A stretch of 63,447 nucleotides of DNA, counting the filler. It is 5 parts of 5 records of this genome, joined end to end, with 100 filler letters (N's around TTAATTAATTAA, not from the genome) between each part and the next. Parts side by side here need not be neighbours in the genome. Positions count along the whole stretch, not along the records: positions 53,689 to 63,447 come from SRR20825019_3090; 4 more parts are not named here. The stretch is one strand, 5' to 3'. Below are positions 36,851-63,447 of the stretch, piece after piece (the stretch's first letter is position 1; the number at the start of each line of letters is the position of its first letter). A model generated the notes under the pieces. The model was not told the origin of the DNA and made no database searches. It was given only the letters and a program-made list of their open reading frames with translations. The position numbers and the translations under genes are program-made.

Positions 36851-36861
36851 TTTGTGCTTGT

Positions 36862-37572: not shown

Positions 37573-37576
37573 GCTT

Positions 37577-41392: not shown

Positions 41393-41536
41393 GTATTGAA
41401 AAGTATAGTGATAAAAATAATCATTTTTACGCTTCAATTTTTAAAAAATTAATAAATACCTTTTTTAATTTAATTAAATATTCACTTTTAAATTCGTTAT
41501 TTTGTGGTTGATGATGTTTAATTTAAATGCTTTTAA

Positions 41537-43784: not shown

Positions 43785-43966
43785 GTAATAAATTAAGTTT
43801 TAATTTTTCATGTATTCCTCGCCAATAGTTTATTTTAACTTCATTATAAAAAAAGAGAAATACATTTCTTAATCGCCCGTAAACGTTTAAATTTGTGACT
43901 TTATTTTGCCTAAAAAGAGCAAGATTGAAAGAAAACATTCATTTTATAAATTAAATAAGTATAATC

Positions 43967-45235
43967 ATGCTTCAAGTACAGTTTATTAGAGACAACAAGG
44001 AGGAGGTAATTAAGCAACTACAAGTAAGAAATGTAGCGGCTTCAATTATTGAAGAAGTAATTTCCTTGGATGAAGAGCGTAGAGCACTTCAGGCGCAATT
44101 AGATAACACATTGGCCGAGTCTAATAAATTGTCCAAAGAAATAGGTGGATATTTTAAAAGCGGCGATGTAGAAAAAGCAAATGAATTAAAAGCGCAAACA
44201 GGAACGTTAAAGGAAACGTCAAAAACACTTAGCGAACAGTTAAATGAAAAATCGGATGCGTTAACCAATTTGCTGTATAAAATTCCTAATATTCCGCATC
44301 CTTCGGTTCCAGCAGGAAATTCTGAAGATGATAATGAAGAGGTTCTTAAAGAAGGAGAAGTGCCTAAATTGGCTGGGGATGCATTACCACATTGGGAACT
44401 TGCTAAAAAATACGACATCATCGATTTTGATTTGGGAGCAAAAATTACTGGAGCTGGTTTTCCTGTATATAAAGGAAAAGGCGCACGTTTACAACGTGCT
44501 TTAATAGCTTACTTTTTAGATAAAAATACCGCTGCTGGATATACCGAATACCAAGTGCCACATTTGGTAAATGAAGCGTCTGGTTATGGAACTGGGCAGT
44601 TGCCAGATAAAGAAGGACAGATGTACCATATTGGGGTAGACGATTTGTATTTAATTCCTACCGCTGAGGTGCCTGTAACTAATATTTTTAGAGATGAAAT
44701 AGTTTCTGAAAACGATTTGCCGATTTGTATAACTGGTTATACCCCATGTTTTAGAAGGGAAGCAGGAAGTTATGGGGCTCATGTAAGAGGATTAAACAGA
44801 CTACATCAATTTGATAAAGTAGAAATTGTAAGGGTGGAACATCCAGATAATTCTTACAAAGCACTTGATGGAATGGTAGCGCATATTCAAGGTATTTTGA
44901 GAGAATTAAAACTTCCATACAGAATTTTAAGACTTTGTGGTGGCGATCTAGGGTTTACTTCTGCGCTTACTTTTGATTTTGAAGTGTATTCTACAGCTCA
45001 AGAGCGTTGGTTGGAAATTAGTTCGGTTTCTAACTTTGAAACGTATCAGGCAAACCGCTTAAAACTTCGTTTTAAAGATGAGAATGGTAAAAGTGTTTTA
45101 GCACATACCTTAAACGGAAGTTCTTTAGCATTACCAAGAGTTTTAGCAGGGATATTAGAAAATTACCAAACTCCTGAAGGAATTAAAATCCCAGAAGTGC
45201 TTGTTCCTTATACTGGTTTTGATATGATTTCTTAA
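43967..45235 (+). CDS. serS: Serine-tRNA ligase
   Basis: LIPTAEVP, CFRREAG, RLHQFDKVE, EISSVSN, HTLNGSSLALPR. Confidence 0.97.
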   Translation: MLQVQFIRDNKEEVIKQLQVRNVAASIIEEVISLDEERRALQAQLDNTLAESNKLSKEIGGYFKSGDVEKANELKAQTGTLKETSKTLSEQLNEKSDALTNLLYKIPNIPHPSVPAGNSEDDNEEVLKEGEVPKLAGDALPHWELAKKYDIIDFDLGAKITGAGFPVYKGKGARLQRALIAYFLDKNTAAGYTEYQVPHLVNEASGYGTGQLPDKEGQMYHIGVDDLYLIPTAEVPVTNIFRDEIVSENDLPICITGYTPCFRREAGSYGAHVRGLNRLHQFDKVEIVRVEHPDNSYKALDGMVAHIQGILRELKLPYRILRLCGGDLGFTSALTFDFEVYSTAQERWLEISSVSNFETYQANRLKLRFKDENGKSVLAHTLNGSSLALPRVLAGILENYQTPEGIKIPEVLVPYTGFDMIS

Positions 45236-45236
45236 T

Positions 45237-45264
45237 TGAAGTATGAAGTATACAGTATGAAGTA
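45237..45264 (+). repeat. Heptamer tandem repeat (TGAAGTA)x4, one variant
   Basis: tgaagta tgaagta tacagta tgaagta immediately after the serS stop. Confidence 0.7.
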
Positions 45265-45302
45265 AAAAGAATTAAGAAGGCAGTTGGAAAGATTGAAAGA
45301 AT

Positions 45303-45402
45303 NNNNNNNNNNNNNNNNNNNNNNNNNNNNNNNNNNNNNNNNNNNNTTAATTAATTAANNNNNNNNNNNNNNNNNNNNNNNNNNNNNNNNNNNNNNNNNN
45401 NN
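45303..45402. other. Artificial contig linker
   Basis: Same 100-nt linker. Confidence 0.98.
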
Positions 45403-45777
45403 AGATTGCAATAAATACACTCCTAAAGAATCTTTAAGTAGCTTGCTCTTTTTTGTTTTCTCGGTCTCTTCTTTTCGGCGGATATCTATAGGTGCTTTTA
45501 TTTTAAAAGCAACAAAATTACTATTCCCATTTATAGTGGCATTATAACCTCTCGGAATAGAATCTGTTTTTCCTGTTTTTAGATTTGTAATTACCAGTGT
45601 TCCATCTCCCATTCCTGGGTTGTATTCGTACACTAAATAATTTCCATTTTCTGAAATTTCTCTATTATCTATTTGTTTCCAGGTATCAAAATCGGCAATT
45701 GTAATTGATTTTTTTTGCGCAGTGAGGGAAACGGTTAATAGGAATACTGATACTAAGGAGAGTAGGTTTTTTATCAT
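45403..45777 (-). CDS. N-terminus of a secreted S9 (prolyl oligopeptidase-like) peptidase, truncated
   Basis: Signal peptide, then QKKSITIADFDTWKQI...ISENGNYLVY...GDGTLVI typical of Bacteroidota S9 N-termini; catalytic domain not in window. Confidence 0.6.
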
Positions 45778-45924
45778 GAAACTTTTTTTTTAAAATACTT
45801 GAATAGCGCACAAGATACCTAAATTAGGAATAATGGTCAATCGTAAAAAAATAATTCCTAGTAGGTATTTTTATGAAATACTCATTAACATTTTTATCAA
45901 ATCAACTTATTTGATAATTGGGAA

Positions 45925-46728
45925 TTAATATTCCCATTGCCTTGTTTTATTAAGGTCTTCCATTTCTGCAATAGCTTGTTCTGGAATTACCTTTAAGAAA
46001 GAAGGATGCTGCTCAATTGCATATTCAATTTTTTCGACAATCTCATTTATAGATTCATTTTCATAATCTATTTCCAAAGGCTCTTTAATAACCATCGACT
46101 GAAGAATTCCTTTTTTCTTAACACGAAGTCCTTTTTTATCAAAAGACCTTCTAAATCCGTCTATAACAACAGGAATTACAATAGGTTTATATTGTTTTAT
46201 AATATGTGCAGTTCCCTTCCGAATGGGTTTCCAAGGTTTTGTAGTCCCTTGCGGGAAGGTTATTACCCAGCCATCGTCTAAGGCTTTTTTTATATTAGAA
46301 ATATCACTAAACTTTACCTGTCTGTTTACCTCTTTCCCATCTGCTCTCCAAGTACGTTCAATACTTATAGATCCTGCATATGCCAATATTTTTGGTAGAA
46401 ATCCAGATTTCATGGTTTCTTTTGCTGCCACATAATAAATATTCAATTTAGGCTGCCACAAATAAGTAACATCTTTTATAGAATCTCCACGACCGCTCAA
46501 GCTTGCATTAAAAACATGAAACATAGCTACAACATCTGCAAAGTATGTTTGATGATTTGAAATAAATAAAACCCCTGTTTCAGGAAGATTTTTAATAATT
46601 TCCGACCCTTCAATTTGCAACTCATTAAACCCACGATAACGACGGTGGGTTAATAAACCTGCAATACGAATAAGCCATTTTTTTAAAAATAATATATGTC
46701 CGAAAGGATTTTTCTTAAACAATCCCAT
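45925..46728 (-). CDS. Lysophospholipid/1-acyl-glycerol-3-phosphate acyltransferase
   Basis: SNHQTYFAD (HxxxxD) and FPQGT motifs. Confidence 0.88.
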   Translation of the reverse strand: MGLFKKNPFGHILFLKKWLIRIAGLLTHRRYRGFNELQIEGSEIIKNLPETGVLFISNHQTYFADVVAMFHVFNASLSGRGDSIKDVTYLWQPKLNIYYVAAKETMKSGFLPKILAYAGSISIERTWRADGKEVNRQVKFSDISNIKKALDDGWVITFPQGTTKPWKPIRKGTAHIIKQYKPIVIPVVIDGFRRSFDKKGLRVKKKGILQSMVIKEPLEIDYENESINEIVEKIEYAIEQHPSFLKVIPEQAIAEMEDLNKTRQWEY

Positions 46729-46783
46729 TACTAATAGTTATATGCTAGTGTTAACAAAGTTTCAAAAATACAAAATCTTAACC

Positions 46784-47425
46784 TTAGATTAGCTTTTTAA
46801 ACATTTCTTTAACCTCATTAAGCATCATTGCAGTAGCACCCCATACCGTATAATTGTTTAATTTAAAGGCAGGTACGTTTATATTTTTAGCATAAGAAGT
46901 GGTTAAATTTTCTTCAAAAAGAGCCTTATCATTCATAAAGTCAGAAAATGAAACTTCAATAATCTCTTCTACCTCATCTTCTTGTAATGTAAATTCTAAT
47001 TTTTCTGTAGAAATCCCCACAAATGGTTGTACTAAAAAATTACTTGGAGGGATATATATTTCTGACATTCTCTTAATCAACTCTATTTTATTTGGAGATA
47101 CTCCTACTTCTTCCCAAGTTTCTCTTAATGCAGTTTCTTCAATATTTTTATCTGAAAGCTCTACTTTTCCTCCTGGAAAACCTACTTGATTAGAATGTAC
47201 GCCATTATAGGTTTTACGAAGAATTAATAAAAGTCTAGTTTTTAACGCATCATCTGGATAAAAAAGACTTACAACTCCTGCTCTTCTCGGGTTTTTATCT
47301 TCAATATTTATAGTATCTAATGTCTCCATTCTAGTTAAAGGAGCCATTTTATAATGAGATTCTTGCCCTGGTAGTGGCAGATTTTTTATTTTTGGAACTA
47401 AATCGTAAAAATCAGCAAATTTCAT
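46784..47425 (-). CDS. Nudix hydrolase, CoA pyrophosphatase type
   Basis: HSNQVGFPGGK..ALRETWEEVG Nudix box; VWGATAMML. Confidence 0.9.
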   Translation of the reverse strand: MKFADFYDLVPKIKNLPLPGQESHYKMAPLTRMETLDTINIEDKNPRRAGVVSLFYPDDALKTRLLLILRKTYNGVHSNQVGFPGGKVELSDKNIEETALRETWEEVGVSPNKIELIKRMSEIYIPPSNFLVQPFVGISTEKLEFTLQEDEVEEIIEVSFSDFMNDKALFEENLTTSYAKNINVPAFKLNNYTVWGATAMMLNEVKEMFKKLI

Positions 47426-48154
47426 ATGCAATATTATACAGTTCGAGCATTTACAATAATACTATTATTTATTTTATCTAGTTGTGGAGATTCAGCAAAA
47501 AAAACTAAGAGCTCTTCAGCAGAAAAAGTCAAAGATACCACTGTAATAGATTCAGCAAAAATAAAAGAAACGCAACAAAAAAAAGAAGAAGAAAAGCCAT
47601 TTGTACTGACAGAAGATAATGCTATTCCATTTTTCTTTGAATATCAAAAAGAACATACAGAACACATAGTTAAAATAAACACTTCTATGGGAAGTTTTGT
47701 TGTGGATTTATACAACCAAACGCCCTACCACAGAGCTAATTTTATTTATCTAACCAAGAAAAAATATTTTAATAATACCTATTTCCACCGTGTAGTTAAG
47801 AATTTTATTATTCAAGGAGGAAATACAGATATGATGTCTACCGCTAAAAAAAGAGATAGCATTGGGTTTTATTTGCTTCCTCCAGATACTAAAAAGGGAC
47901 TAAAACACAACCGCGGAGTTATGTCTATGCCTAGTAGTGATGATGTTGCAAACCCTCATAAACTAGCATCTCCATTTGAGTTTTTTATAGTTACTGCTAA
48001 GAATGGGGCACACCATTTAGATGGTAAATATACTGCTTTCGGAAGGGTAATCTCTGGAATGGATGTTGTAGATAAAATTAATAATGTTCCTGCTGGAAAA
48101 GACGAATGGCCTCTAAAAAATGTACTTATTAAATCGGTTGAAATTTTGGAATAA
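47426..48154 (+). CDS. Cyclophilin-type peptidyl-prolyl isomerase, lipoprotein
   Basis: Lipobox LSSC; FHRVVKNFIIQGG, HLDGKYTAFGRVISGMDVVDKI. Confidence 0.92.
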   Translation: MQYYTVRAFTIILLFILSSCGDSAKKTKSSSAEKVKDTTVIDSAKIKETQQKKEEEKPFVLTEDNAIPFFFEYQKEHTEHIVKINTSMGSFVVDLYNQTPYHRANFIYLTKKKYFNNTYFHRVVKNFIIQGGNTDMMSTAKKRDSIGFYLLPPDTKKGLKHNRGVMSMPSSDDVANPHKLASPFEFFIVTAKNGAHHLDGKYTAFGRVISGMDVVDKINNVPAGKDEWPLKNVLIKSVEILE

Positions 48155-48291
48155 GCTGCCTCGATATAAGCACACAAAGTATTTTAAAAAAAGCATTGTG
48201 GTTTTGAGAAAGCCTCGTAGCATTTATACCTCGATACCCATTCAAGCAAAGTCGGGTAAATAAATCCTTTTGGTATTCAAATAAAATACAT

Positions 48292-48897
48292 TTATTTTTT
48301 ATAAACGGTAGGCAATTCTAATTTGTATTTAACTGCTAACAAACGCACCACAATTACAACAATAATTGGAATGGCAAAAACAATATTACTTTTAATATCA
48401 AAAAGTGTCAATATAAAATAACTTACTCCACCAAGAATACATGCGGTGGCATAGATTTCTTTTCTAAATATAACGGGAATTTCATTACAAAGTATGTCTC
48501 TTAATACTCCTCCAAAACATGCACTTATTGTTCCTAAAGCAATGCACATAATTGGATGAAGACCAGCCGCTACACCTTTTTCAACACCTACAACTGTATA
48601 CAAACCAATTCCAATAGTATCAAATAAAAAAAGAGAAAGATTAAAATATTTTAATTTACTTCTAAAAATTATAGCTAATATAACGGTTCCTATAACTACA
48701 AACATATAGGTGGTATTAATTAACCAAGTTACAGGAGAAATTCCTAATAATACATCTCGAATAGTTCCGCCGCCCAGTGCTGTTACAAAACCTATAATAA
48801 AAATCCCAAAGGGATCCAGTCGCTTATTCATGGCTACCATAACTCCTGATATTGCAAAAGCAACTGTTCCTAATAAATCTATTAAATAATAAAACAT
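48292..48897 (-). CDS. TRIC channel / UPF0126 family membrane protein
   Basis: AFAISG, TALGGGTIRDVLLG, FGGVLRDILCNEIPVIF duplicated helix repeats. Confidence 0.9.
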   Translation of the reverse strand: MFYYLIDLLGTVAFAISGVMVAMNKRLDPFGIFIIGFVTALGGGTIRDVLLGISPVTWLINTTYMFVVIGTVILAIIFRSKLKYFNLSLFLFDTIGIGLYTVVGVEKGVAAGLHPIMCIALGTISACFGGVLRDILCNEIPVIFRKEIYATACILGGVSYFILTLFDIKSNIVFAIPIIVVIVVRLLAVKYKLELPTVYKK

Positions 48898-49640
48898 TAC
48901 ATGTGTTGGGTAAAGTAGTTATAATCTTTTAAAACAGTTTTCACAAAGGCATGGGTATTATTGTGAACGGATTGTATGCCTGTTACTTCTTCTATCTTAC
49001 TTTTTAGCTTTAGCATAGTTTGATGGTCGGATGCCTTTCTAGCTACTTCATAAGTTTCTTTTATAATTCTAGCATCATTGTCGGATAACTTAATAACCAT
49101 TGGATATGTTGGTTTATAGTCTTCTGATAAATTTTCTAAAATAGTATGATTAATAGTTACCTTATTTTTTAAGGTAATTACAGAAGTTCCCGCAGTAATA
49201 TCTCCCAATCGCTGACTCTTATCACTTACAATTATAGAAATCAATCCTATAATTCCACTCATCATATTAATGTCTATAATTCTAAAAAACCATCGCACTA
49301 CATAATCTGGAAAAGATGCTTGATATCCATCTATTTTTACCACTTTTATTTTTAAGGCTCTCTTTCCTATAGTTTGACCTTCTAATAACGATTCAAAAAG
49401 TAAGGTATAAAATACTACAGGAAGTAAAAACAATAATATAATTGCCATTTGCGACCAATCGTCCATAGCCTGCATTGTTTCCCACAACCCTGATAAATGA
49501 AAAATAAAATAAGCTATGGTAGAAACATAGGCTATTTTAATAAGAAAGTCTGTTGCATATGCCAGAATTCGTTCTCCCACCGATGCTGCTGTAAACATTA
49601 TGTTTACATTTTGTGTTGTGTTAATTTGTAACTCTGACAT
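48897..49640 (-). CDS. RDD family membrane protein
   Basis: ERILAYATD, GQTIGK, QRLGDITAGT. Confidence 0.9.
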   Translation of the reverse strand: MSELQINTTQNVNIMFTAASVGERILAYATDFLIKIAYVSTIAYFIFHLSGLWETMQAMDDWSQMAIILLFLLPVVFYTLLFESLLEGQTIGKRALKIKVVKIDGYQASFPDYVVRWFFRIIDINMMSGIIGLISIIVSDKSQRLGDITAGTSVITLKNKVTINHTILENLSEDYKPTYPMVIKLSDNDARIIKETYEVARKASDHQTMLKLKSKIEEVTGIQSVHNNTHAFVKTVLKDYNYFTQHM

Positions 49641-49671
49641 TTTCTTACTTAATTTAAACTTTTTATTCTAC

Positions 49672-50649
49672 ATGAGAGAAGTTGCATTTATCAAACAAAA
49701 TAAAGAAAAATGGCTCAATTTTGAAAAGGCTATTTTCCATAATCAATTTAAAGACCCAGACGACCTTGCTTCTCAGTACATTCATTTAATTAATGATTTG
49801 TCTTTTGCGCAAACCTATTACCCCAAAAGTAAAATAATAAACTATTTAAATCAGCTTGCTGCAAAAGCATTTCAAAAAATATATCGGACAAAAAGGCAAG
49901 ATACTAATAGAATTTTATCTTTTTGGAAAACAGAAGCTCCTCTTATAGTATTTCAATACCGAAGATATATTGCTTACGCTTTTATTATTTTTTTCTGTTT
50001 TGTTACTATCGGAGTTATTTCCGCAGCAAACGACACTACTTTTGTTAGACTTATTTTAGGAGAAGATTATGTAAATAGAACTCTAGAGAACATTCAAAAA
50101 GGAGATCCTGTTGCTATTTATAAAACAGGAAGTAATTGGGGTGGGTTTTTAGCTATTACATTTAACAACCTCTTTGTTGGTATAAAATCTTTTATTTATG
50201 GCATTTTTGGGGGATTAGGAACAGGGTTTGTACTCATGCAAAATGGAATTATGTTGGGCGCATTTCAATATATGTTTCAGCAAGAAGGTGTTTTCTGGGA
50301 GAGTGTACGTGGTATTTGGATCCACGGAGCTATGGAAATTTTTGCAATTGTAATTGAAGGAGCTGCAGGCTTACTTCTAGGCGCTAATATTTTGTTTCCA
50401 AAAACTTTTACCAGAATAGAATCTTTTAAAATTGGAGTGAAAGATGGAGTGAAAATTTTAATAAGCACCTTCCCTTTTACCATTGCAGCAGGTTTTTTGG
50501 AGGGTTTTGTAACTCGCTATTCTAATGCTATGCCACATTTTCTCTCTGTAGGAATTATATTAATTACTTTGAGTATTATTTCTTATTACTTTTTAATTTA
50601 TCCAACTATTGTTTTTAAAAAAATAACCAAAAATTATGCAGCTCTATAA
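49672..50649 (+). CDS. Stage II sporulation protein M-like membrane protein
   Basis: MREVAFIKQNKEKW start, DLSFAQTYYP, NG..LG, IHGAMEI, AGFLEGFVT. Confidence 0.85.
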   Translation: MREVAFIKQNKEKWLNFEKAIFHNQFKDPDDLASQYIHLINDLSFAQTYYPKSKIINYLNQLAAKAFQKIYRTKRQDTNRILSFWKTEAPLIVFQYRRYIAYAFIIFFCFVTIGVISAANDTTFVRLILGEDYVNRTLENIQKGDPVAIYKTGSNWGGFLAITFNNLFVGIKSFIYGIFGGLGTGFVLMQNGIMLGAFQYMFQQEGVFWESVRGIWIHGAMEIFAIVIEGAAGLLLGANILFPKTFTRIESFKIGVKDGVKILISTFPFTIAAGFLEGFVTRYSNAMPHFLSVGIILITLSIISYYFLIYPTIVFKKITKNYAAL

Positions 50650-51568
50650 ATCCAGATCTTTTGGAGACTTTTTTTCTGATACATTTACTTTTCTAAAAGA
50701 AAACGGAAAACACTTTTATAAAAACTACTTTATCATCAATGGGATCTTTATTATTCTATTAATGGTAATGATATTTTTCTTTTTTCGCTTTTATAACAAT
50801 ATAATATTCTCAGATTTTACAACTGGTTCTGGAGATCCATTTACCAATTATATCGACGAAAATATAGGCACTGTTTTAATATTTGGTTCTTTATTTTTTA
50901 TACTTGGACTCTTACTAGGAGTTATTAATTATGCATATACTCCAATTTATTTTCTTCTATTTGAAAAGCACGGCGGCAAGAATTTTACTAAAAATGATCT
51001 TATAAATGAATTAAAAACACAGTTAGGAAAGATTTTTATCTTTTTATTAGCAGGGTTTTTAATTTCGATTCCTACATTTATTGCAACCTTAATTATTTGT
51101 GGGATTCTAGCCGTAACTATTATAGGAATTCCATTACTTTTAATTGTTTTTGCATGGCTAGCTCAGTTTTACTTTATAGCTTTTATAGCCTATTTACAAA
51201 CAGACAAAGGAGTATTTGATTGTTTCTCGTACAGTTTTAATCTTTCCTTCAAAAAGTTTTGGTCTGCAAATGGTTGTGTAGCATTATTTTATATAATTAT
51301 TCAAACAGTACAAACTATCATAACAATAATTCCTTATAGCTTTTTAATTGGCTCCTTTGTTTTAGGTGCTGAAAACGGTTCTAACACAAACGAACAAACA
51401 CTAACTGCAATTACTTTAATGACAATTACCTATATGGTTGCCTTCTTTATAAACCTAATAATGGTTACTGTTTTACAAATGAATGAAAGCATTATCTACT
51501 TTAGCTTAAAAGAAGAAACCGAAAACATTAATACAAAAAGTGTGATAGACGAAATAGGAAGTTATTAA
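50636..51568 (+). CDS. Multi-pass membrane protein of the SpoIIM/MoxR cluster
   Basis: 310-aa hydrophobic ORF overlapping the upstream stop; RSFGDFFSDTF start. Confidence 0.8.
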   Translation: MQLYKSRSFGDFFSDTFTFLKENGKHFYKNYFIINGIFIILLMVMIFFFFRFYNNIIFSDFTTGSGDPFTNYIDENIGTVLIFGSLFFILGLLLGVINYAYTPIYFLLFEKHGGKNFTKNDLINELKTQLGKIFIFLLAGFLISIPTFIATLIICGILAVTIIGIPLLLIVFAWLAQFYFIAFIAYLQTDKGVFDCFSYSFNLSFKKFWSANGCVALFYIIIQTVQTIITIIPYSFLIGSFVLGAENGSNTNEQTLTAITLMTITYMVAFFINLIMVTVLQMNESIIYFSLKEETENINTKSVIDEIGSY

Positions 51569-51569
51569 T

Positions 51570-52319
51570 ATGCGATTAAAACGATTACTCTTTTTTTTAT
51601 TATTTCTCACGCTTACTTTTAGTTTTGGACAAACAGCTGCCAATAAAAAAAGTATTGGAGACACACTTACTATTGATAGAAATTCCGCTATAGAAAAACG
51701 TAGTTATACAGAAGGTTTTAAAGACAATTATACTGCTGAAAAATATCAATATGAAGTGGATGCCGCGCCAAATGGTTGGTTTTCTAGACTGAAACAATGG
51801 TTTAAAGACCTTTTTATAAAGTTATTTCAGCTAAACAATGATGTCGAAGCAAATAAGTTAATAGATATTATTTCTCGGATTGTCTATTTACTCATTATTA
51901 TTGTTGTAATCTACATCATTGTAAAAGCTATTTTAAATAAAGAAGGAAGATGGATTTTTGGTCGCTATTCTGATAAAAAAAGTCTTAACATTCAAGACAT
52001 AGAAGCCAATATCCATAAAACCGATTTCAAAACTCTAATTGAGCAAGCATCTAAAGAAGAAAATTATAGACTAGCCATTCGTTATTATTATTTATGGCTT
52101 TTAAAAGAACTTTCAGAAAGAGAATATATAGATTATGACGTTGAAAAAACTAATAGCGATTATATAAATGAACTTAATGATGCTAACTTAAAAACAAAAT
52201 TCTCATACACTTCTTACCTTTATAATTATATCTGGTATGGAGAGTTTCCTATTGAAAAATTGGCTTATACAGAGGCAGTAGATCGTTTTGAAAACCTTTT
52301 AAATTTGGTTAGAAAATGA
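51570..52319 (+). CDS. DUF4129-like membrane protein
   Basis: AIRYYYL..L..L....I.....KTNSDY..EL...Y.YIWYGEF pattern. Confidence 0.75.
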   Translation: MRLKRLLFFLLFLTLTFSFGQTAANKKSIGDTLTIDRNSAIEKRSYTEGFKDNYTAEKYQYEVDAAPNGWFSRLKQWFKDLFIKLFQLNNDVEANKLIDIISRIVYLLIIIVVIYIIVKAILNKEGRWIFGRYSDKKSLNIQDIEANIHKTDFKTLIEQASKEENYRLAIRYYYLWLLKELSEREYIDYDVEKTNSDYINELNDANLKTKFSYTSYLYNYIWYGEFPIEKLAYTEAVDRFENLLNLVRK

Positions 52320-53512
52320 ACAGGACTTTAAAAATATACGTAAGCGTTTTGGTTTTACTGTTTATTGGAGCTATTATTTTTGAAGTTTCAAGACCCAAAC
52401 CTGTTGATTGGACTCCTTCTTTTAGTGAAAAACATACCATTCCCTATGGGCTTAAAGTTTTCCGAGATGAGTTACCGAGTCTCTTTCCAAACGATTCTAT
52501 TGTAAATTTACATCGAACTGCATATGAGTTTTTAAACGACCATTATAATTGGGAAGATTCTACCTATTCTATAAAAGGGAGTTATCTAAAAATTAATCCA
52601 AACTTCACTATTGATGCGGTTTCAGTAGAAAAAATATTAGAATTTGCCAGCCAAGGAAATACTGTTTTTATTGCTTCGGAACAATTTCCACAAATATTAC
52701 AAGATACGCTTCAATTTAAATTAAAAAATAACTATAGTTTTAGTGGAAGCGCTACTTTTAAATTATCTAATAACGCTTTTAAAGGAGATTCTATTGTTGC
52801 ATCTAAAGGAAGTAGTAATTATTATTTCCACGAATTAAATAAAGAAAATACTACTGTTTTAGGCTCTCAAAAATTTAAAGAAGAACATATTAATTTCGTT
52901 AAAATAAAATTTAAAAAAGGAGCTATTCTCTTACATACACAGCCTTATGCGTTTACCAATTATTATCTTTTAAAAGACACTAATTACAACTATGTTTCAG
53001 ATGTTTTAACGTATTTACCAAATGGAACTGTGCTTTTTGACTCAGATTATAAGGAAGGGACGTATGTCTCCGACTCTCCTTTACGCTTTATTTTCTCACA
53101 ACCTTCTTTAAAGTGGGCATGGCTTTTAGCGCTATTTTTTATTATTACTTTTATGCTTTTTAATGCAAAAAGGAGGCAAAGAGCTATAAAAATTATAACT
53201 CCATTACGCAATACTACCGTACAGTTTACAAAAACAGTAGCCAATTTATATTACGAGTCTAAAGACCACACAAATATTATTGATAAAAAAATAACCTATT
53301 TCTTTGAACAAATCCGGAGAGATTATCATTTAAATACAGAACTTTTAGATGACAAATTTATAAGCAGATTAGCATCCAAAACTGGAGTCAGTAAAAATAA
53401 AGTACAAAAACTTATTCAATATATTCTGGCTTTAAGAACTAAAACTATACATACCGAAAAAGACCTTGTAGATTTAAATAAATTAATTGAAGAATTTTAT
53501 CAGAAAAAATAA
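52316..53512 (+). CDS. DUF4350-like protein
   Basis: DWTPSFS..HTIPYG, P..FTNYYLL, FNAKRRQRAI, FTKTVANLY; ATGA overlap with the previous gene. Confidence 0.75.
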   Translation: MNRTLKIYVSVLVLLFIGAIIFEVSRPKPVDWTPSFSEKHTIPYGLKVFRDELPSLFPNDSIVNLHRTAYEFLNDHYNWEDSTYSIKGSYLKINPNFTIDAVSVEKILEFASQGNTVFIASEQFPQILQDTLQFKLKNNYSFSGSATFKLSNNAFKGDSIVASKGSSNYYFHELNKENTTVLGSQKFKEEHINFVKIKFKKGAILLHTQPYAFTNYYLLKDTNYNYVSDVLTYLPNGTVLFDSDYKEGTYVSDSPLRFIFSQPSLKWAWLLALFFIITFMLFNAKRRQRAIKIITPLRNTTVQFTKTVANLYYESKDHTNIIDKKITYFFEQIRRDYHLNTELLDDKFISRLASKTGVSKNKVQKLIQYILALRTKTIHTEKDLVDLNKLIEEFYQKK

Positions 53513-53514
53513 AT

Positions 53515-53588
53515 ATGGACACACCGATAGAAAATCAATCTGAAGAACAAAATAACGATCTAAATAGCGACCAAAACAATGAGCAGAA
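53515..53588 (+). CDS. Start of next gene, probably a MoxR AAA ATPase (truncated)
   Basis: ATG 2 nt after the previous stop, MDTPIENQSEEQNN...; identity inferred only from the usual order of this cluster. Confidence 0.45.
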
Positions 53589-53688: not shown

Positions 53689-56042
53689 GTGGTCGGTCGA
53701 GTCACTGTTGGAATAGTAATGATTGTCGTTGGAGTGCTTGTCGATCGAGTAGTAGTGCTCGATGGGACAAGAATAGTACTGGTTGGTGGCGGTGACTCGC
53801 ACTCGCAGGTCAGAATATTAACTGGCTGCTCACCGCACTGTTCCGGATCTAAACTGCACAGTTCGCACTCTCGCCCTCCATATCTCCAACCACAATTGCA
53901 AACGCAAAGATCGGTATCAAGAGTACCACCATGAAAGCATGTTAAGTCGCAAAGCTCACACCTTTGACCAGTCCAGGGCCGAGGGCAATCACATGTGCAC
54001 AACATGTCCCCGCTATCATCTTCAGAGACAAATATTCCCTGGTGAAGACAATCCTCGGGCATCAGACCACATGACTTTGGCTCTGAGCATTCACAAGTAA
54101 TGATATCCACAGAAGAACCGGGCGGGCACTCTTCTGGGTCCAGTGTGCATAACTCACATTCTCGACCACCCCATCGCCATCCGCAGTTGCAAACACACAA
54201 ATCGGTGTCAAGCGTTCCTCCGTGGAAGCACGTCAGGTCACAAAGCTCACAGCGCTGTCCTGTCCACGGCCTCATACAATCGCAACGACATTCGCCTGCC
54301 TCTCCCCAATAAATACCACTATGAAGGCAGTCCTCTGGTTCCAGCCCACACTTTTCCTCCTCGACACATTCACACGTGACTATATCGACAGTCGAGCCGG
54401 CAGGGCATTCCTCAGGATCTATCGTGCACATTTCACATTCTCGGCCGCCCCATCGCCAACCACAGTTGCAAATACATTGATCTGAGTCCAGAGTTCCTCC
54501 GTGAAAGCATATCAGATCACACGCCTCGCAGCGCTGCCCACTCCAGGGTCTCGTACAGTCACACTCACACTTCCCATTTTCCGAACTATAGACACCACCA
54601 TGAAGACAATCTTCTGGGCGCAAGCCACACTGGGGCGGCTCTGAGCATTCGCACGTTACTAGATCGACCACACTTCCCGAAGGGCACGATTCAGGATCGA
54701 TAGAACATAGTTCACACTCCCTTCCACCCCAGCGCCACCCACAATCGCAGATACACGAGTCCGTGTCCAGGGTGCCTCCATGAAAACATGATAGATCACA
54801 TGCCTCGCAACGGTCTCCGGACCACGGACGGAGGCACTCGCAATCGCAAGACTTGCCATCCTTAACAAAAACACCTCCATGTAAGCAGTCTTCCGGCTTC
54901 AACCCGCACTGGTCTGGCTCCGCTTCACAAGAGCACTTGATGACATCAACGACCTCTCCGTCATCACATTCTGCCGAGTCAAGCGAGCACGTATCACACG
55001 CTCTGCCAGCCCATCGCCACTTGCAGTTACATTGGCACGCGTCTGAATCCAGCTGCCCGTCATGATAGCACACAGTGTCGCACATCTCACATCTCTGGCC
55101 CGTCCATGGTCGCACGCACTCGCATTCACACCTCACCGCATCAAGCACACCCCCGTGAAGACAGTCCTCGGGGCTCAGGTGACAGGTTGCTGCTGATACT
55201 GAAAGCAAACGTATTAACATTCCACGGAATGTTGAGAATGCCAACTTCCTACCCTCTATTAGCTCGGTTGCTCCAGCGGCTAGCCTTGCATCCCTTGTGT
55301 GAGCATGAGACGGTCCTGGAGAGGCAAGCCAGTTAGGTGTACGCACAGACCCGGCCGCGGGGGTAGCTCACCCATCAATTCCCTCACAAAACACCTCTGA
55401 GTCCCGTCAGGATTGTACTTCATAGCCCCACTCTTGTACCAATCCCTCTTAGTGGGAATCAACCCGTCTCCCCCCCACTCCTTGTATGGTATACAGTTTT
55501 TGTCTCGAAAATCATCGCAAGGAGATACAATCACAGGCGTTCGGTTCTCTGTTGATTAAACATTTGAGGAAGAACCCCGAATACAACTTACAACAATCCC
55601 ATACCAATACTTCTGCAATGATGGAACTCCTTGGCGCATGCATATTCTTTAACAGAGGACACGCACATATTCGGGTGAAAGAGAAGTTTCAAAATCCTTT
55701 GGTAGTGCTGGTGGGCCCGATTGTTCATTGCCACCCAAGAGTCGCCAGTCTTTCGTCGATACTATGCGGGAAAAGGAAAAGATATCGAAATCAGTTGAAG
55801 GATGCCGACAGCTGAAAAACTCGGGACTCACGTTATACGATATTTGATCACAAAAACTCTTCTCATGCCTCGGAGGAATTGCGCACAACCACTCCTGCTC
55901 AGCCGAGCTGGGCTGCCCCCCTCCCACTCCTGGAAATAGAATAGTTTCAGAGAGGCCGAGAAACGTTATTCTTAGGCAACTTACCCAGCCCCGCCATTAT
56001 GACAACAAGGACAACCCAACTCAGCTTTGGAGCCGGTGTCAT
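53689..56042 (-). CDS. Secreted/surface protein: signal peptide, Frizzled-like CRD, five Cys-rich EGF-like super-repeats, Thr/Pro stalk (3'-truncated); 5 introns
   Basis: Manual splicing from ATG 56042 (MTPAPKLSWVVLVVIMAGLG) through ORFs 55649-55927 and 55280-55534 into the 569-aa frame; five ~95-aa units beginning CxLxPEDCLH. Confidence 0.75.
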
Positions 56043-57248
56043 AATGGATTTGGTCAAGCTCGCTCCGAAAACTTGAAAAAGATACTGGGAAGTTCGAGAT
56101 GCGTACATATGTACATATGTATTCACCCTTCACGGCTTCCGAGGTGGTAGAGTCCGGAGGGGACGTGTTGAAGGGCCCGGAACCGAGTCGGCCCCGCCAT
56201 CGGTTATCAAGAAGACAATCAGCAGCCCGACTCGGCCTCTACTACGGTAGGATAGCAGCACTTCGGTCGCGTTGGGTCTGTTTCGGGCAAGCCAAGGCGA
56301 GCACGAGGTGTCACACGAAGTCAAGTGGGCCGCGGCCGGGCGGGCCGGCGGCCGCGCGGCCGCCGCGGCGTGGGGCTCGGACGCCGGCGGTCCCGCCGGC
56401 GCAGGGGGCCCCCACCAGAGCTGCGTCACCGCGTGGCCGGGGCCGGCGGCTAGGCAAACGAACTTTGTCAATGAACATCTAGGTTGAATGGATTATCTCG
56501 AAACTATGAATTCATGAGATTGTTTTGAGATACACGGAGATGAAGCGGAGATACCAAATGGCAAGAACATCAACCGTCCACGCGTCGCGGTCGGCTCGGA
56601 GCCCGGGATCACTAGGGCCGACCCGGCGACCGGCGGACTGCAAGAGTCCTTCGCCGGTCAGCCGGCGGGAGTCCCGTCGTCAGGGAAGAAGGTGATGATT
56701 CATTGGATAGAATCGCGATGCGGCGGGCTCGCTGGGCCGCGGACGAGGTTGTGACGGCTCGGTGCGGCCTGAGGCTCTGCCAGGGGACGGCACTGCCTCG
56801 GTCGGTGAGGTCTCAATCGTTGGGAAGCAGCTGAGGTCGTCGGCATGCTAGAACCGTGGCTGCTCCGGTCGTCTCTCAGCCTAGGGCTGTCGTGGTGATC
56901 GGATCAACTGAGCCGCCCCGGCGCGGCGGGTCAGCCTGCTGGCCCTGGGGCCGAGCGGTGCCGTCATCTGGTCCGGTCGGCACCAAGTCAGTATGGCGGG
57001 GTACCTCTCAGGTCAACGATGCCGTGTACTGGAGATCAATGGATTGTTGAGCATTCCGAGTCATTGGCGGAAGGGGAGGCATTGGCGCCATCGAGACCAC
57101 ACCGGCTCCGGGCTGCATGCGGACGGCCACGGCACTGATAACCCAGTTATAGGCCAGCCGTCACCAGAGGCACTACATGTACATGTAACAGCTTGGAGAA
57201 CAGGCAAGAACTCGTACGGGTTGACTCTGCCCGAGAGAAGGCGCCGTC

Positions 57249-60200
57249 ATGGCACTCCTGCGTGGTCGCCTGCGCGTTCACCCGATATTTTGGGGATGTG
57301 TAGTGCTCGCTTGTGTAGGAATTAGCAGCTGTGCAAGTAAGTGACAGGCTTGTAGTTGACCTGTAAGTGAATCTGACCGGGTGGACTCAGCCAACGTGGG
57401 AGTTCAGACATATGACTGGATAGCGTACGGTGATGGACTAGAGGCTGGGGGCGCGGTGACGTATAGCCCGAGCATCCCCACCAACTCGTCTGGGGTTGGC
57501 CCGCGGTCGCTGGTACCATGGGGCCTGAGCATGGAAACAGATAAGATGTTTCTCAGCGGGACTGTCACGAACATTACCGCCGCGGGCGATGTCGAGGCCG
57601 GTCCGGGCGAGCCGCGGAAGATGTTTGTCGGTTCCTTCTCCAAGGGGAACACTACCCAACGGCTTAGCTGGAGAGAATTCTCGTCGACCGAGCTGTTTGG
57701 GTCGTCGTTTGGGGGTGGCTTCATAGAGGACCGGACGGGCCGCTCCGCCATGGGTTCGAGTGTATTGTACGTATCCGGCACTGTGGCCGACAGCATAGGC
57801 ATGGATGCTTTTGTGCTGGCCTTGAGCACCACCGATCTATCTCTCAAGTGGAAGAAACGGGTGCGGAACCAAGCCCGTGGGGGTGAGATCGCGAAGATGG
57901 GACACATCGTGACGTCAGGGACCCAGGTCTGCGGCTGTGGCGAGGAAGCTCCGGCCAGCTGGCCTCAAGACAGCCGTGGCTTCGTGTTCTGTCTGCGTAC
58001 TGACACCGGCGCCGTGGCTTGGTTCAAGCAGCTCTTTGCGTCTAGAAATGAGGGTGACCCCATCGGAGATGTATTTCACGCGCTGTCCTTCAGGCCGGAT
58101 GGCGGGCTTGTCGTCGTGGGTGAGAGCTGGGGAGACCACAGCAACGGCGCCGGACAGAGGCTGTCATTCGGTCGTGCTGACAGTGTTGTTTTGGCCCTTG
58201 ACACCAGCCAGACTCTCACATTTGTTGTTCATTATTCCCTTGCAATTCCCACTGCTCTTACTGCAGTAGTGTCCTCAACCGCCGTAGATTATTTCTCTGG
58301 CAGGCTGCAGTCGTATGCGGGGAACACCATGATGAGCGTCGTTTCGCAGAAGCATGGCCTTCTTGCGGCCGAGTACACCCTGATGATCGATCCAACGAGC
58401 CCCAATGGTGATTCGGTCCACGCCCATATCAGAGGCATCTCCCTGGTGAACAATCGTTTGTTTGTGGCTGGCTCTTCAACCAGTTATTTTGGTGATACGA
58501 ATCACGGCTTTGTCGGTCCGTCCGAGGGCATGGTAGCTATGGTAGACAGAGATAACGGAGAATATATGTGGTTCCGATATGTAGGTCAAGAGGGAAGATC
58601 ATCGTTCAATGATCTGGCTTGTGAAGAAGGAGTCTGCTACGCAGCCGGCACCTTCCAGCCGACAGGGGGCGAAGGGAATTTCTTCATGATCATGCGGACG
58701 CCCATCTGCAACAATGGCACTCACGTCCCGGCGAATATTGATTTTCCGACCTCTGTCTATTCTTATGACACATGCTATGAGTGTGCGGCCGGCAATGCGC
58801 AGAACATTTCGGCCCAGACTTCGTGCGAGGCCTGCTTGCCTGGCTATTACGCCCACATCACGAAGCTGGGAAACTGTCTGGCGTGTGACCCTGGCACATA
58901 CTCTGGGACTGGATCCGCGACCTCTTGTGTCCAGTGCCCACTGGGATATAACGCGGCCTCCTCGGCCATGACGAACTGCACTGAGTACGTAGACGGGTCA
59001 TTCTACGGGAATGGTCTTGGTGTTCTGACGCTATTGTCTCCAGGTGTCCCGCGGGAAGTTACGCCGATGGCCTCGGCACGGCGGAATGTAAACTTTGTCC
59101 AGCGGGCACTGCAAGCGCGATCAAGGGTGCAACGAATGCAAACGTGTGTCAGCCGTGTGCGCAAGGAACTTACGCGCCGACGCCTGGTCATGCGCAGTGG
59201 TAAGAGTGACCTTGGGAACATGTCGATCCTGGCCTTATCTGATGAGTTTGATCCAGTCTGCAGTGCCCCAATGGCCATTGGACCAACGAGACTCAGGCGA
59301 CAAGCTGCTTCGCATGTCCAGTCGGTCACCAGCTCGACGCACTTGGAGCGACTTCGTTCTCGCAATGTACACCCTGTGCATTAGGAACTATCGCTCCGAA
59401 CACGGGAACCGGCCAGTGGTAAGTTGGCGATGCTCAGTGCGAACCCAGAAGTCTAATCAGCCCTGCAGCGCTAAATGCCCCGGGGGTACCCACCAGAACC
59501 AGACCGCTCAGACAGTTTGCCACACTTGTCCACCGCGGACTATGGCCAAGCAAGAAGGATCGATCCACTGCGAGCCGTGCCCTCCCGGCACTGCATCGGA
59601 CATCCCCGGCACCGTCAAGTGTGCTCTGTGTCCAAAAGGCACATACCAGGACAAATTTGGCCAGGCCAAATGCAAAGGGTGTGCGGTGGACACCTTCGCG
59701 ATGTATGATGGCTCGATCACCTGTACAGAATGTCCTGGGGAGTCATGGACGCAGGATAATGTGAACTCCGATCATATCCTCATGTGTAAGTGCAAGCGGA
59801 CTTTCTATGGAAGTCCGGGCGAGGGCCGTCATTGCGCTAAGTGCCCTGCGTTTGCGTCATGCGCTTCCACTGATCGCTACCCAAACCTACCGGCGGGCAC
59901 GTGGATGCGCACTAATGATCTAGAGAAGCAATTCAAGTGCCAGCCAGAGATTGCTTGCCCCGGCGGCACTCCGAGCAGCGTTCCGGAACCAGACCCTACC
60001 AATCCCATCTTTCCGCCAGGCGCGCAGCAGCCGAACTTCACCACTCTTGCCACACCAGACACCTTGATAGGGCGGCTGCACTCAATGGCCAGCCGACATG
60101 CCGGCGTGATGAAAATCATGTCCGACACCACGTACGAGTCGGCTTGTGGGGTCGGATACACCGGGGAAGCTTGTAGCTCATGTTCCAGCGGCTACTATCG

Positions 60201-63200
60201 TTCTAAAGGCAATTGCGTTGCCTGTACAGGCTCATCCTTTGCGGGAAGCAGTGCGGTGATATACACCCTGACCACGCTTGGCCTTATTGTCTGTGCTATC
60301 CTGCTGCTAGTGTTCGGTTTATGGAAGGGTTCGCTAACATTGATATTGGAAAAGCAAAAGGCCAAGTTGCAACGGCTGCTGCATTCGAAAGACCCGGAAG
60401 AGACCGTTGAGGAGCTCGCGGCCCTTTCGCACCACGGCGTAGTCACCACAACAGACGCCGATGGGGACACTAATCTGGTTTATGACTCGGCCAAGGGAGC
60501 GAAGGCCGGGGCGGAACTGTCGAATGCTCGGAACCTGGATTCGAACGAGGGTTCCGACGGCGCAAGTGAACAGGAAGAGGAGAAGAAGGGTATTTTCAAG
60601 CGCATTTGGGGCGCCATTACCGGTGTAAAGGATTTCATCGCGGGCACTATTGACGCGATGATATCGCCATTTAAGCTCGTTGTGGAGGAGAGGGACATGC
60701 TGACGGTGCTTGAGCTGGAGAGGCGGGGTTGGAGCGCGCGGCTTTCAAGCGTGATTGCCCGTCTCATTAAGTTTGCCCAGCTGTCCAGCGTGCTTCTAAA
60801 TATCAAGGTGGAATGGCCCGAAAGCCTCACCACCCTGGGCAGCGCGCTGCAGGTGGCATCATTCGACATCAACGACATCATAAGCGTCCAATGCCTCTCC
60901 GGCTCGGATGCTGAGTCCACATACGCGACCCGGTACTACTTCCGTATTTTCCTGCCGATCATATTCATGGGATTGTCTGCGGTATATGCATTCCACGTGT
61001 ACTTGATATCTTGGTCAGTCCGCTGCATGAGTTGGTGCGCGGCACGGTCTCAGAAGAAAGCCAAGAGACCGGCAGTGTCTACCGGCTTGGACAGTAACGT
61101 CCCGAGCATGGAGGGAAGCGAAGTTGGTATGGTTCCGGATGGTGCCGAGAATTCCTCCGTCCCCATGAAACGCAGGGGCACCGTGATGCATCAAGCGCAT
61201 GCTGCTAATGTCCTGAACAATGAGCGGACCGGATGCCTGGTGGACCTGAACCGATCCCTTAGCAACAGCGTTGACACCTTCGTCATGCTCTTCCTGCTGT
61301 TCGGTTCCCTGGCGTACGTGACGATGCACGCGGCTGTCATCGAGGTTTTCACGTGCATGGAACGCGACTCGGGCAATTACTACCTAACATCTGAGCCTGA
61401 GATCAAATGTTTCGTAACCGATGGCACCTGGATGACCCTGATGCCCATTGGCGTAATTGGTTTCTTCTTCATCTCCCTCGGAGTCCCGGCTCTTCTTGCT
61501 GTGTTCATATGCACCCGGCACCCTCGCCGCCATCGCAAGGTGGTAGATGTCCGTTACGGTTTTTTGTGGAACGCATATCGCACGGAGAAGTACTGGTTCG
61601 AACTGGTGAATATTGCTTTCAAGTTTATTCTCGTCCTGATGATGCCACTGAGCTTCTTGTCCTCGGGCGATCAGCTTGCGGGAATGATGTTTGTGTTCAT
61701 CATGTACCTCATGACACAGCTCGTCTATCTGCCGTTCCGCGTGCCGTCGGACAACTGGATGGAGGCCTTCCTGCTTGCGTCCGTCCTGCTGCTTGATATC
61801 TTGGGCATTATTCTGTACGCGAATGCGTCAGGATCGGAGACCGAAATGACCACGTTTGGCCGGGAAACACTGGCTTACATTGCCATCATCAGCATGATAT
61901 TTGTCATGCTGTACTTTTTGTACACCGCGATCGGTGGTCAGGCCCGGACTCAGGGGTGGATGCAGAGCTACAAGAGCAAATTTGCAGCCCAAACGATCCG
62001 AGAGCGGTACGAGTTTGTCTCGTCCGTGTGTAAGTTGGAGCAGGTAGTGGTGTCGGGCGAGGGTGAGCAGACTCCTTTCGAAGGAACACAGAACATAGCT
62101 CGCAAGATCCTTATGCTTCCAGAGAACACGTTTTGGCTTGGCGATGTGAATATGGGACGTATGATGTACATTCCTGTCCACTACTTGGATATGTGGGAAG
62201 CCATCTTAAGGTCGAAGAGGGACGGCCGCCCTGTGACGGTGCTGGCGGGCCCCGGTGGGGGCAAGACATTCTTTGGAGCGTTCCTGGTGATGATGTTTGC
62301 ATACAGAGCCGGCCTTGGCGATGATGAAGGGGAGGAGAAAGAAGGTGGACAAGAGAGTGGGGCGGAGGAAGAGGTCTTGAACCAGGAGGATAGGGACACG
62401 CCAAGTGGCGCCGAGAACGATCCCGTGGACTCTGATTTGGATGATGTATACATCGGCACTTTGTTCTATGAAACGCCGGGGGGGCGAATATTAGAGTTCA
62501 ACCTGGAGTCTGTGACGATTCATATCATGAGTCGAAAGAAGTTTGAGTCCCGACTTCGAAAGCGCAAGGCGCGCAGGGAGTCTGGTTCGTGTGCTATGAT
62601 ATGCGACGGAACGGCGGTCGCCAGGACGATCTTCCCTGATGAGTGCGTCCTTCGTATCCGGCTGGCCTGCCCGGGAGATTTGTCGCTTGGTGAATGGGAG
62701 GACGCCATCATGGCCGGCAGACGCGAAGATGGCGATAACACCTCGCCACTGATCATGGGCCTCACTCCGTGGCATCCGTCTGACTTGCTTAGCTGGACAA
62801 ACCTCCGTCGGCAAAACGACGACCCAATGGAGTTTGTCCGCACACTTCGGTCTTACCTTGTCAGTGGAGGACGCCCGCCCGCGGTGCAGTCCTGGTCCAT
62901 TGCTGACCAGCGGTCATCTATCTCAGCCAAGGTGGAACAGCATGGCGGAATCGGAGCCCTGGAGGAGATTGTGGCCGCTGCGGAGAGACCGGACGAATCA
63001 TCCCTCGAAGATCAGCCCTGCTCGGCCCAGGCACGACTTGTCGAGGCACTGACGTCGCGATTCGGGAGCTTGGTCACGTTCGACGATAGGGTGGCTCCGA
63101 AGGATTGGCGAGGCGCGCCGATGAGCTGCGTGTGCACCTCTCAGGAAATCCTCACACTTCTGGTGGCGCAAGGTCGACAGAACGGGGGTCGGAACCTGGA

Positions 63201-63447
63201 CCTTATTGCCCGTGCGGCCCGGCTGGACTCAAGCGGGTGGTGCGTGGGATTGCTGCGACAGCTGTATGCCGGCCTTGCCGTTACAAGACTAGCAGCGGGG
63301 TGCCGACTGCAATGCCGGTCAATGCTGACTCCAAAGCCGGATGGAGCGGCTACCCTAAACTCACCTCCGGATACTCTAAAATCAACGTTTAAGCTCTCCT
63401 TCCGCAACCCTATTCGCCGCGCGCCGACGGCCACAACATCCGCCGTC
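57249..63447 (+). CDS. Giant surface protein: signal peptide, beta-propeller-like region, GCC2/GCC3 Cys repeats, multi-TM domain, cytoplasmic Crinkler-type P-loop NTPase (3'-truncated); 4 introns
   Basis: ATG 57249 signal exon splices to ORF 57381. Three further GT-AG introns lead to a frame open from ~59469 to the window end (absent from the ORF track). CxxCPxG repeats, RYGFLWNAYRTEKYWFEL TM signature, Walker A AGPGGGKT at 62245-62268. Confidence 0.85.

Follow-up and report, generated by a model that had tools for sequence, protein, structure and literature searches.

CRN-type nucleoside triphosphatase (NTPase)-nuclease cassettes are known as the cargo of secreted effectors, the Crinkler toxins of pathogens of plants and animals, and as relatives of transposon proteins. 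In PMC5289972 and PMC11064341, the arrangement of NTPase, helix-turn-helix (HTH) and restriction endonuclease (REase) domains, defined by Zhang et al. (2016), is described as the commonest C-terminus of Crinkler (CRN) effectors, the nuclease of this scheme is treated as toxic and the NTPase as regulatory, and NTPase+REase C-termini are linked to cell death; PMC5289972, citing Zhang et al. (2016), also links CRN cassettes to mobile elements. On the side of membrane proteins, bioRxiv 10.1101/2022.08.11.503631 describes fission-yeast Pkd2 as a nine-helix protein that has a signal peptide and carries its C-terminal domain in the cytoplasm. Here we describe a locus that appears to bring such parts together. 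It lies in a window of 63,447 nt (the whole stretch of DNA that was analyzed), which consists of five contigs with N runs between them, and it lies on the last of these (53689-63447), where an open reading frame (ORF) on the plus strand, P0001 (59092-63447), runs for 1452 stop-free codons and exits the window end.

P0001 encodes GCC2/GCC3 cysteine repeats, then a bundle of membrane helices, and then a region that we call the tail (61939-63447), which opens with a signature of the CRN NTPase. We favor the reading, with a probability of about 0.6, that the gene encodes one membrane protein with a GCC2/GCC3 ectodomain, a TRP/Flc/Pkd2-like bundle and, as a nucleotide-dependent module in the cytoplasm, a diverged CRN NTPase cassette that lacks the header. 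This is a new domain architecture made from known parts, seen once and with its 3′ end incomplete. A full-text literature search, which did not cover the architectures of Zhang et al. (2016), showed no description of a membrane-anchored CRN NTPase in the titles and abstract openings of the papers listed, of which only PMC11064341, on secreted Phytophthora CRN effectors, mentions Crinkler at all; a search that joined GCC2/GCC3, transmembrane and NTPase gave no paper.

The CRN signature and the remainder of the tail

The tail matched no family in Pfam, NCBIfam or PADLOC, and word-index homologue searches with the tail (candidates of 259-825 aa) and with the long ORF (798-2541 aa) returned nothing at E ≤ 0.01. 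An exhaustive phmmer search of 1.84 billion protein representatives gave three matches (E 6.1e-5, 1.6e-4 and 7.5e-4; 36-40% identity), which aligned to tail residues 13-103 only, and in all three the Crinkler header PF20147 was found directly upstream of the matched stretch. One of the three is a protein of Peronospora matthiolae, and its NTPase region, used as a query, found 166 proteins at E ≤ 0.001; among the matches listed (at least 120) were crinkler (CRN) family proteins of Phytophthora, Peronospora, Aphanomyces, Batrachochytrium, Rozella, Rhizophagus and others. A CRN profile built from 122 collected proteins matched P0001 residues 1002-1071 with 39.6 bits (E 2.4e-12), while the best of 200 shuffled tails reached 1.5 bits. 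The features of the tail, including the motifs discussed below, are as follows.

61936..62094, plus strand: basic linker behind the last helix, with donor-like sites at 62030 and 62063
62095..62304, plus strand: CRN-type NTPase signature (CRN profile), with the pre-Walker-A element (LPENTFWLG, MYIPVHY), Walker A GPGGGKT and the next helix
62116-62142, plus strand: LPENTFWLG, in the P0001 frame
62248-62268, plus strand: GPGGGKT (Walker A), in the P0001 frame
62317..62445, plus strand: acidic low-complexity insert of 43 aa that separates the Walker A helix from the strand after it, with no counterpart in the CRN family
62446..62799, plus strand: putative remainder of the P-loop core (TLFYE strand, RKRKARR, Walker-B-like MICDG, RLACP, LTPW), registered by hhalign and MAFFT
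62458-62472, plus strand: TLFYE, resembling CRN TVVYE
62596-62610, plus strand: MICDG, resembling CRN YIVDG (Walker B)
62659-62673, plus strand: RLACP, in the P0001 frame
62761-62772, plus strand: LTPW, resembling CRN MPVW
62800..63447, plus strand: helical region and start of a nuclease-like domain (SGGRPP, CTSQEIL, LRQLYAGLAV; hhalign), which exits the window
62863-62880, plus strand: SGGRPP, resembling CRN WGGIxR
63133-63153, plus strand: CTSQEIL, resembling CRN FASxYV
63253-63282, plus strand: LRQLYAGLAV, of which LYAGLAV resembles CRN LFExHAH

Both the family-specific pre-Walker-A element and the Walker A consensus G-x-P-G-x-G-K-T-[YF]-F-G are present in the tail. Counting as conserved any column that is the same in at least 80% of the CRN family, we found the tail to be identical at 16 of the 28 such columns before and around Walker A; over all 105 conserved columns it keeps 34, and it is far more diverged than every one of the 122 collected family members. 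Because the match includes a pre-P-loop element that generic P-loop proteins lack, the first ~75 tail residues, Walker A included, are on sequence grounds specifically homologous to the CRN NTPase. In this respect the profile match and the headers of the three phmmer matches uphold the proposal of a first-pass annotation of this DNA that the tail opens as a Crinkler-type NTPase and not as another P-loop class. A Pfam search at E ≤ 1 found no Crinkler header (PF20147) in the tail, in the whole 1452-aa ORF or in the ORF upstream of it.

In metagenome scans with the tail as query, 289 pattern matches yielded no relatives; with A1, an alignment of the tail and 74 CRN proteins, ten CRN-like loci were recovered, all of which match the same signature stretch and none of which carries a membrane bundle on the upstream ORF, a weak comparison on contigs as short as these (1.4-3.9 kb). 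The metagenome loci L005 and L009, both with GC-rich CRN-like ORFs, share ...TTF(W/L)GSS...MYIRDDY(V/L)GLW... before Walker A with the window tail, and L009 has a ubiquitin-like stretch upstream; among environmental sequences, these two may be the closest relatives that the cassette has.

Downstream of Walker A the family resemblance is harder to read. There the core of the CRN family continues with the TVVYE strand, Walker B YIVDG, TSP and MPVW. Comparison of the whole tail with the CRN family by hhalign gave a probability of 96.95 over 342 collinear columns, and the same registration, which is that of the first-pass annotation, was obtained with hhalign on the whole tail, with hhalign on the part after the insert and with MAFFT, its last residues running into the stretch before the nuclease core. 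The post-insert hhalign score of 21.7 was matched by 5 of 150 shuffles, which is marginal, and the C-terminal 216 aa gave a collinear hhalign alignment whose score was matched by 1 of 90 shuffles. Among the family residues present in the tail in this registration are the Walker-B Asp, the TVVYE Tyr, the MPVW Trp and both Gly of WGG. The WGGIxR motif is not preserved, its near-invariant Trp being replaced by Ser and its near-invariant Arg by Pro in the aligned SGGRPP, and in the first nuclease helix (LFExHAH) Glu is replaced by Ala and His by Val; the nuclease core lies past the window end. The loss of the LFE glutamate, which had been suspected from the letters alone, is seen under every alignment. 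We consider it plausible but unproven that the rest of the tail, after the insert, is a CRN-type NTPase.

Immediately ahead of the Walker-B strand, the tail has seven inserted residues in comparison with the CRN family, and in them we observed a basic cluster, RKRKARR (62557-62577), that resembles a monopartite nuclear localization signal (NLS).

Structure prediction for the tail with AlphaFold2 (AF2) gave a mean predicted local distance difference test (pLDDT) score of 64.8 when guided by A1, with values of 83-92 for the P-loop core including the post-insert strands, 83-90 for 62446..62799, about 45-56 for the acidic insert and below 50 for the last 25 residues. The order of strands and helices was identical in the A1-guided and single-sequence models. 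An exhaustive structural aligner placed mitoribosomal small-subunit chains on top (Z 7.0-7.6), which we take to be the P-loop protein mS29/DAP3, and then the AAA+/STAND proteins Sir3, ORC/Cdc6, Avs5, NLRP9, SAMD9 and BrxC (Z 5.3-6.6). Atlas language-model features of the tail leaned towards nSTAND3/AAA clusters at 0.84-0.88, which is under the lead threshold, and a PDB sequence search with the CRN family profile returned chance-level rows only.

Gene model, ectodomain and membrane topology

Upstream of P0001 lies a second ORF (57360-59384), and reading of the DNA together with a test of splice combinations led to a five-exon model (57249-57336, 57391-58984, 59044-59199, 59257-59418 and 59469-63447+). 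Its translation runs through 1993 codons without a stop, so the predicted protein has at least 1993 aa, and its 3′ end lies beyond the window. The model requires four GT..AG introns of 50-59 nt (57337-57390, 58985-59043, 59200-59256 and 59419-59468), which have GTAAG or GTACG donors and CAG acceptors, and the CxxCPxG spacing of the cysteine repeats is regained at each splice. All of the motifs quoted in the first-pass annotation are present in the translated P0001 frame, and the ATG of exon 1 falls on its start coordinate, 57249. Its statement that one frame links ectodomain, membrane bundle and tail holds for 59469-63447, that is, for the last GCC2/GCC3 repeats, all of the helices and the tail, and fails for the 5′ part, where the four introns are needed. 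The parts of the receptor are listed here.

57249..57336, plus strand: exon 1, with ATG and a hydrophobic, signal-peptide-like N-terminus (Kyte-Doolittle, KD, peak at residues 12-30), up to a GTAAGT donor
57391..58984, plus strand: exon 2, an N-terminal ectodomain of ~440 aa of unknown family and the first GCC2/GCC3 repeats
59044..59199, plus strand: exon 3, a single GCC2/GCC3-type cysteine repeat, with CxxCPxG formed via splicing
59257..59418, plus strand: exon 4, GCC2/GCC3-type cysteine repeats
59469..60255, plus strand: start of exon 5, more GCC2/GCC3 repeats (PF07699, 35.6 bits, four stretches) and a cysteine-rich juxtamembrane region
60256..60312, plus strand: membrane helix 1, adjoining the ectodomain (KD 2.6, Hessa-type sum -3.28)
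60742..60798, plus strand: marginal ninth hydrophobic segment (KD 1.46), required if the N-terminus is to lie outside and the C-terminus inside
60952..61935, plus strand: strong seven-helix bundle (hydropathy), with a weak PF06011 (TRP/Flc/Pkd2-type) likeness

The extracellular region of ~900 aa would comprise an N-terminal domain without a family, followed by the GCC2/GCC3 cysteine repeats. Pfam searches found Ephrin_rec_like (PF07699), which we take to be the family formerly named GCC2_GCC3, in both ORFs above the cut-off of 23.1 bits (35.6 bits in four stretches and 24.6 bits in two). For the first ~440 residues the only Pfam match was a sub-threshold one to PQQ_2 (PF13360, beta-propeller-like; E 0.007).

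Hydropathy analysis of P0001 identified eight strong helices, at residues 389-407, 621-639, ~730-750, 788-806, 838-856, 862-880, 892-910 and 930-948, and a marginal ninth hydrophobic segment at 551-569. The last four helices matched positions 277-403 of the 426 of PF06011, the family of which fission-yeast Pkd2 is presumably a member, with E 1.7e-4 and 21 bits against a cut-off of 28.5. Atlas features of the transmembrane part gave values of 0.93-0.95 to unnamed and TRP-domain clusters from protists and algae, which serve as leads only, and a PDB sequence search with the transmembrane region returned chance-level rows only.

The number of helices decides the side on which the tail would lie, since with the N-terminus outside, eight helices place it outside and nine place it inside. 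We counted Lys and Arg within 15 residues of the helix ends, and obtained 20 inside versus 5 outside for the nine-helix model and 6 inside versus 15 outside for the eight-helix model. There are eight Lys or Arg residues in the loop behind helix 788-806, and the stretch just behind the last helix is basic as well. Because this positive-inside count fits the nine-helix model, a cytoplasmic tail is the better-supported reading, in agreement with the first-pass placement of the tail inside the cell, although the inference depends on the marginal ninth helix.

The frame of the tail (503 codons) contains no stop, compared with 18-20 stops in the other plus-strand frames and 8-17 in the minus-strand frames, and the probability of a stop-free frame of this length by chance is 3.5e-9 for this composition. 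GC content at third codon positions (0.65-0.68) exceeds that at second positions (0.43-0.51) in the tail, a pattern also shown by the transmembrane region. The linker contains two donor-like sites, GTAAGT at 62030, which is like the other donors of this gene, and GTGAGC at 62063, together with a strong pyrimidine-rich acceptor at 62122. Two in-frame options, 62030-62098 (69 nt) and 62063-62122 (60 nt), would keep the fusion. An intron at 62063-62122 would delete an L and a P that match conserved columns of the CRN family, which argues that the linker stretch is coding.

A look-up of sequencing runs for words of the window found no RNA run among those listed; X1, a public run of unknown kind, shares 31% of the words. 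Contigs of X1 are collinear with 60759-63447 and show no joints, and they cover nothing upstream of 60759. They differ from the window at ten sites, and at five of these the change is synonymous and in a third codon position. The folded NTPase parts show four synonymous and no non-synonymous differences, and the non-synonymous ones fall in the linker, in the acidic insert, at one site of the transmembrane region and near the end. With n = 10, these differences give only a hint of constraint. Taken with the frame, they fit our view that the tail is probably part of the same protein, a real fusion made as a single polypeptide.

Word depth in X1 was 12.1 for the 2136-letter contig of the tail (62264-63447, with 952 further letters past the window) and 2.9-4.6 for the five contigs over the transmembrane region (60759-62289). 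A 3′ bias might account for this gap if X1 is an RNA run, and copy number if it is a DNA run; the tool itself warns that depth of this kind cannot rank gene parts.

Elsewhere in the window, two AT-rich contigs (34023-53588; GC ~0.31 versus 0.5-0.6 elsewhere) lie between N runs of an otherwise eukaryote-like scaffold and carry tightly packed, prokaryote-style ORFs. Over 11.3 kb, the first of them (34023-45302) shares 99% identity with the chromosome of a bacterial genome (G001), in a comparison that covered this piece and not 45403-53588. The AT-rich contigs are most likely bacterial contamination brought in by scaffolding. On the contig of our locus, the minus strand carries a neighboring gene (53689-55367) that continues into an N gap and whose product has five or more near-identical cysteine-rich EGF-like repeats together with a Thr/Ser/Pro-rich stalk; its only Pfam match is a sub-threshold one to Teneurin-EGF, and it probably encodes another surface protein. 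An RCC1-repeat protein with a SHIPPO (sperm-tail PG-rich) repeat (11891-15268, plus strand) and an aromatic amino acid lyase (26600-28183, minus strand; E 1.1e-190) are also encoded, and these two genes are consistent with a flagellated eukaryote.

Competing explanations of the fusion

Several results weigh against the reading that we favor. Aligned on its own, the core remainder goes to the wrong part of the profile, with a score matched by 14 of 90 shuffles, and HMMER reports a second domain at only -2.1 bits, or -3.0 bits against metagenome locus L001 (both weak, both collinear). In a MAFFT --add control the post-insert part showed 19 identities at 74 conserved columns against a shuffle mean of 20.0, with 85 of 120 shuffles equal to or above the observed count; because shuffled post-insert parts score equally high, counts of motif identities in such alignments prove nothing. 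Only 18 of the 77 conserved columns after Walker A are identical. The parallel in motif order that had been drawn with CRN NTPases thus stands for the signature up to Walker A and becomes weak after it. As to the fold, the confidence of the AF2 model is borrowed largely from the CRN family rows (pLDDT is 35.9 for the tail as a single sequence), no structural neighbor reaches Z 8, so that the lower values may mark a common arrangement only, and a Foldseek comparison of the tail gave no PDB match at E ≤ 0.001. For the membrane part, the ninth helix is marginal (KD 1.46) and the PF06011 match falls under the curated cut-off, and in the linker the donor at 62030, if used with the acceptor at 62091 or 62122 (93 nt), would bring in a stop right behind the last helix. 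The same annotation had proposed looking for paralogs and for the same architecture elsewhere, and neither turned up among the library matches, the metagenome loci or the window: none of the three phmmer matches joins a receptor to a CRN NTPase, and a six-frame hidden Markov model (HMM) scan of the window had the tail itself as its sole significant match. By these searches the protein is an orphan, its tail having relatives only through the CRN signature.

An orphan of this kind, with so few family columns kept after Walker A, the family Arg, Glu and His lost and a 43-aa acidic insert, might be an evolutionary accident, that is, a CRN-type or transposon-derived cassette that came to lie behind a receptor gene and is read through, lineage-specific, decaying and without a dedicated function; such an origin would suit the link between CRN cassettes and mobile elements that PMC5289972 draws, citing Zhang et al. 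(2016). We nevertheless judge it unlikely, as decay sits poorly with 503 stop-free codons, with codon-position GC of the coding type, with the enrichment of X1 differences in synonymous third positions (5/10) and with an intact Walker A and Walker-B Asp. Harder still to credit is an artefact of the gene model, in which use of the donor at 62030, or a stop-creating splice that escaped notice, would end the receptor soon behind the last helix and leave the NTPase tail separate or untranslated. The stop produced by GTAAGT at 62030 with acceptor 62122 or 62091 speaks for it. A separate tail, however, would have neither an upstream exon nor a header of its own, the membrane bundle occupying that space, and the same frame runs across the linker; moreover, an intron at 62063-62122, like the far end of 62030-62122, would remove the family-conserved L and P, and X1 contigs, whatever the kind of that run, span 61688-62289 collinearly.

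A more far-reaching version would have a protist surface receptor capture a Crinkler/transposon-derived NTPase-nuclease toxin cassette as its cytoplasmic output, a membrane-bound counterpart of an NLR-type death switch with ligand-driven, nucleotide-dependent activation or nuclear release; we find this version very improbable. The ligand-triggered death or immune receptor of the first-pass annotation, in which engagement of the ectodomain activates the NTPase-nuclease cassette, perhaps released and imported into the nucleus via RKRKARR, and the cell is killed or arrested, seems to us more doubtful again. It draws on the architecture alone (a surface ectodomain joined to a CRN toxin module), on the NLS-like basic insert at 62557-62577 and on the ties of CRN NTPase+REase C-termini to cell death in PMC5289972 and PMC11064341; against it, the first nuclease helix has other residues in place of Glu and His, and the nuclease core lies outside the window. 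A signaling or cell-death role of the fusion is speculation at this stage, and the first-pass idea of a domesticated signaling output drew no support from any test of this analysis.

Under the reading that we prefer, a single membrane protein with a nucleotide-dependent cytoplasmic module, the chain would run from a signal peptide through an outside region of ~900 aa and one helix to a cytoplasmic acidic loop, and then through the bundle (nine helices including the marginal one) to the cytoplasmic tail. The tail would fold as a P-loop NTPase and, with both Walker A and the Walker-B Asp preserved, would most likely still bind nucleotide. Since WGGIxR has lost its Arg, and the nuclease helix its Glu and its His, we infer that the cassette has left the role of a toxin nuclease and that at least part of the nuclease chemistry has been lost. 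More likely, it would sit at the cytoplasmic side of a channel-like receptor and work there as a nucleotide-dependent switch or assembly module.

If the tail is built into a multi-pass receptor of the cell itself, the locus would clearly exemplify how a conflict module is turned to endogenous signaling or regulated cell death, and it would offer a tractable handle on the NTPase part of CRN proteins, which is poorly understood even in CRN effectors. Were it only a lineage-specific accident, it would still document the spread and recombination of CRN cassettes in protist genomes.

Comparison with CRN effectors, Pkd2-type proteins and STAND NTPases

The NTPase + HTH + REase C-termini of CRN effectors from oomycetes, chytrids and Glomeromycota are like the tail in the region up to and including Walker A (36-40% identity; profile E 2.4e-12), and as far as the first nuclease helix their later motifs recur in the tail without a change of order, in an alignment that is marginal against shuffles. 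Where CRN effectors carry a Crinkler/Ubl (ubiquitin-like) header, the window protein has a membrane bundle, and whereas CRN effectors are secreted, the window protein would be membrane-anchored with the module inside the cell. Unlike in these effectors, the tail contains the 43-aa acidic insert, and the WGGIxR Arg and the nuclease-helix Glu and His are replaced.

Like TRP/Flc/Pkd2-type proteins (PF06011), the predicted protein would begin with a signal peptide and an N-terminal domain outside the cell, cross the membrane in a bundle of several helices and end in a cytoplasmic tail. The PF06011 match is below its cut-off, and the ectodomain here consists of GCC2/GCC3 repeats and an unassigned domain instead of a lipid-binding domain. 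The tail of Pkd2 is, according to bioRxiv 10.1101/2022.08.11.503631, mostly disordered and not an NTPase.

Among STAND/AAA+ immune NTPases, NLR, Avs and SAMD9 proteins are structural neighbors of the modelled core (Z 5.3-6.3, a range in which only a common arrangement may be shared). CRN relatives of the tail give weak nSTAND3 matches in Pfam, while the tail itself has no match to a sequence family. In the window protein the NTPase is not followed by a repeat sensor domain.

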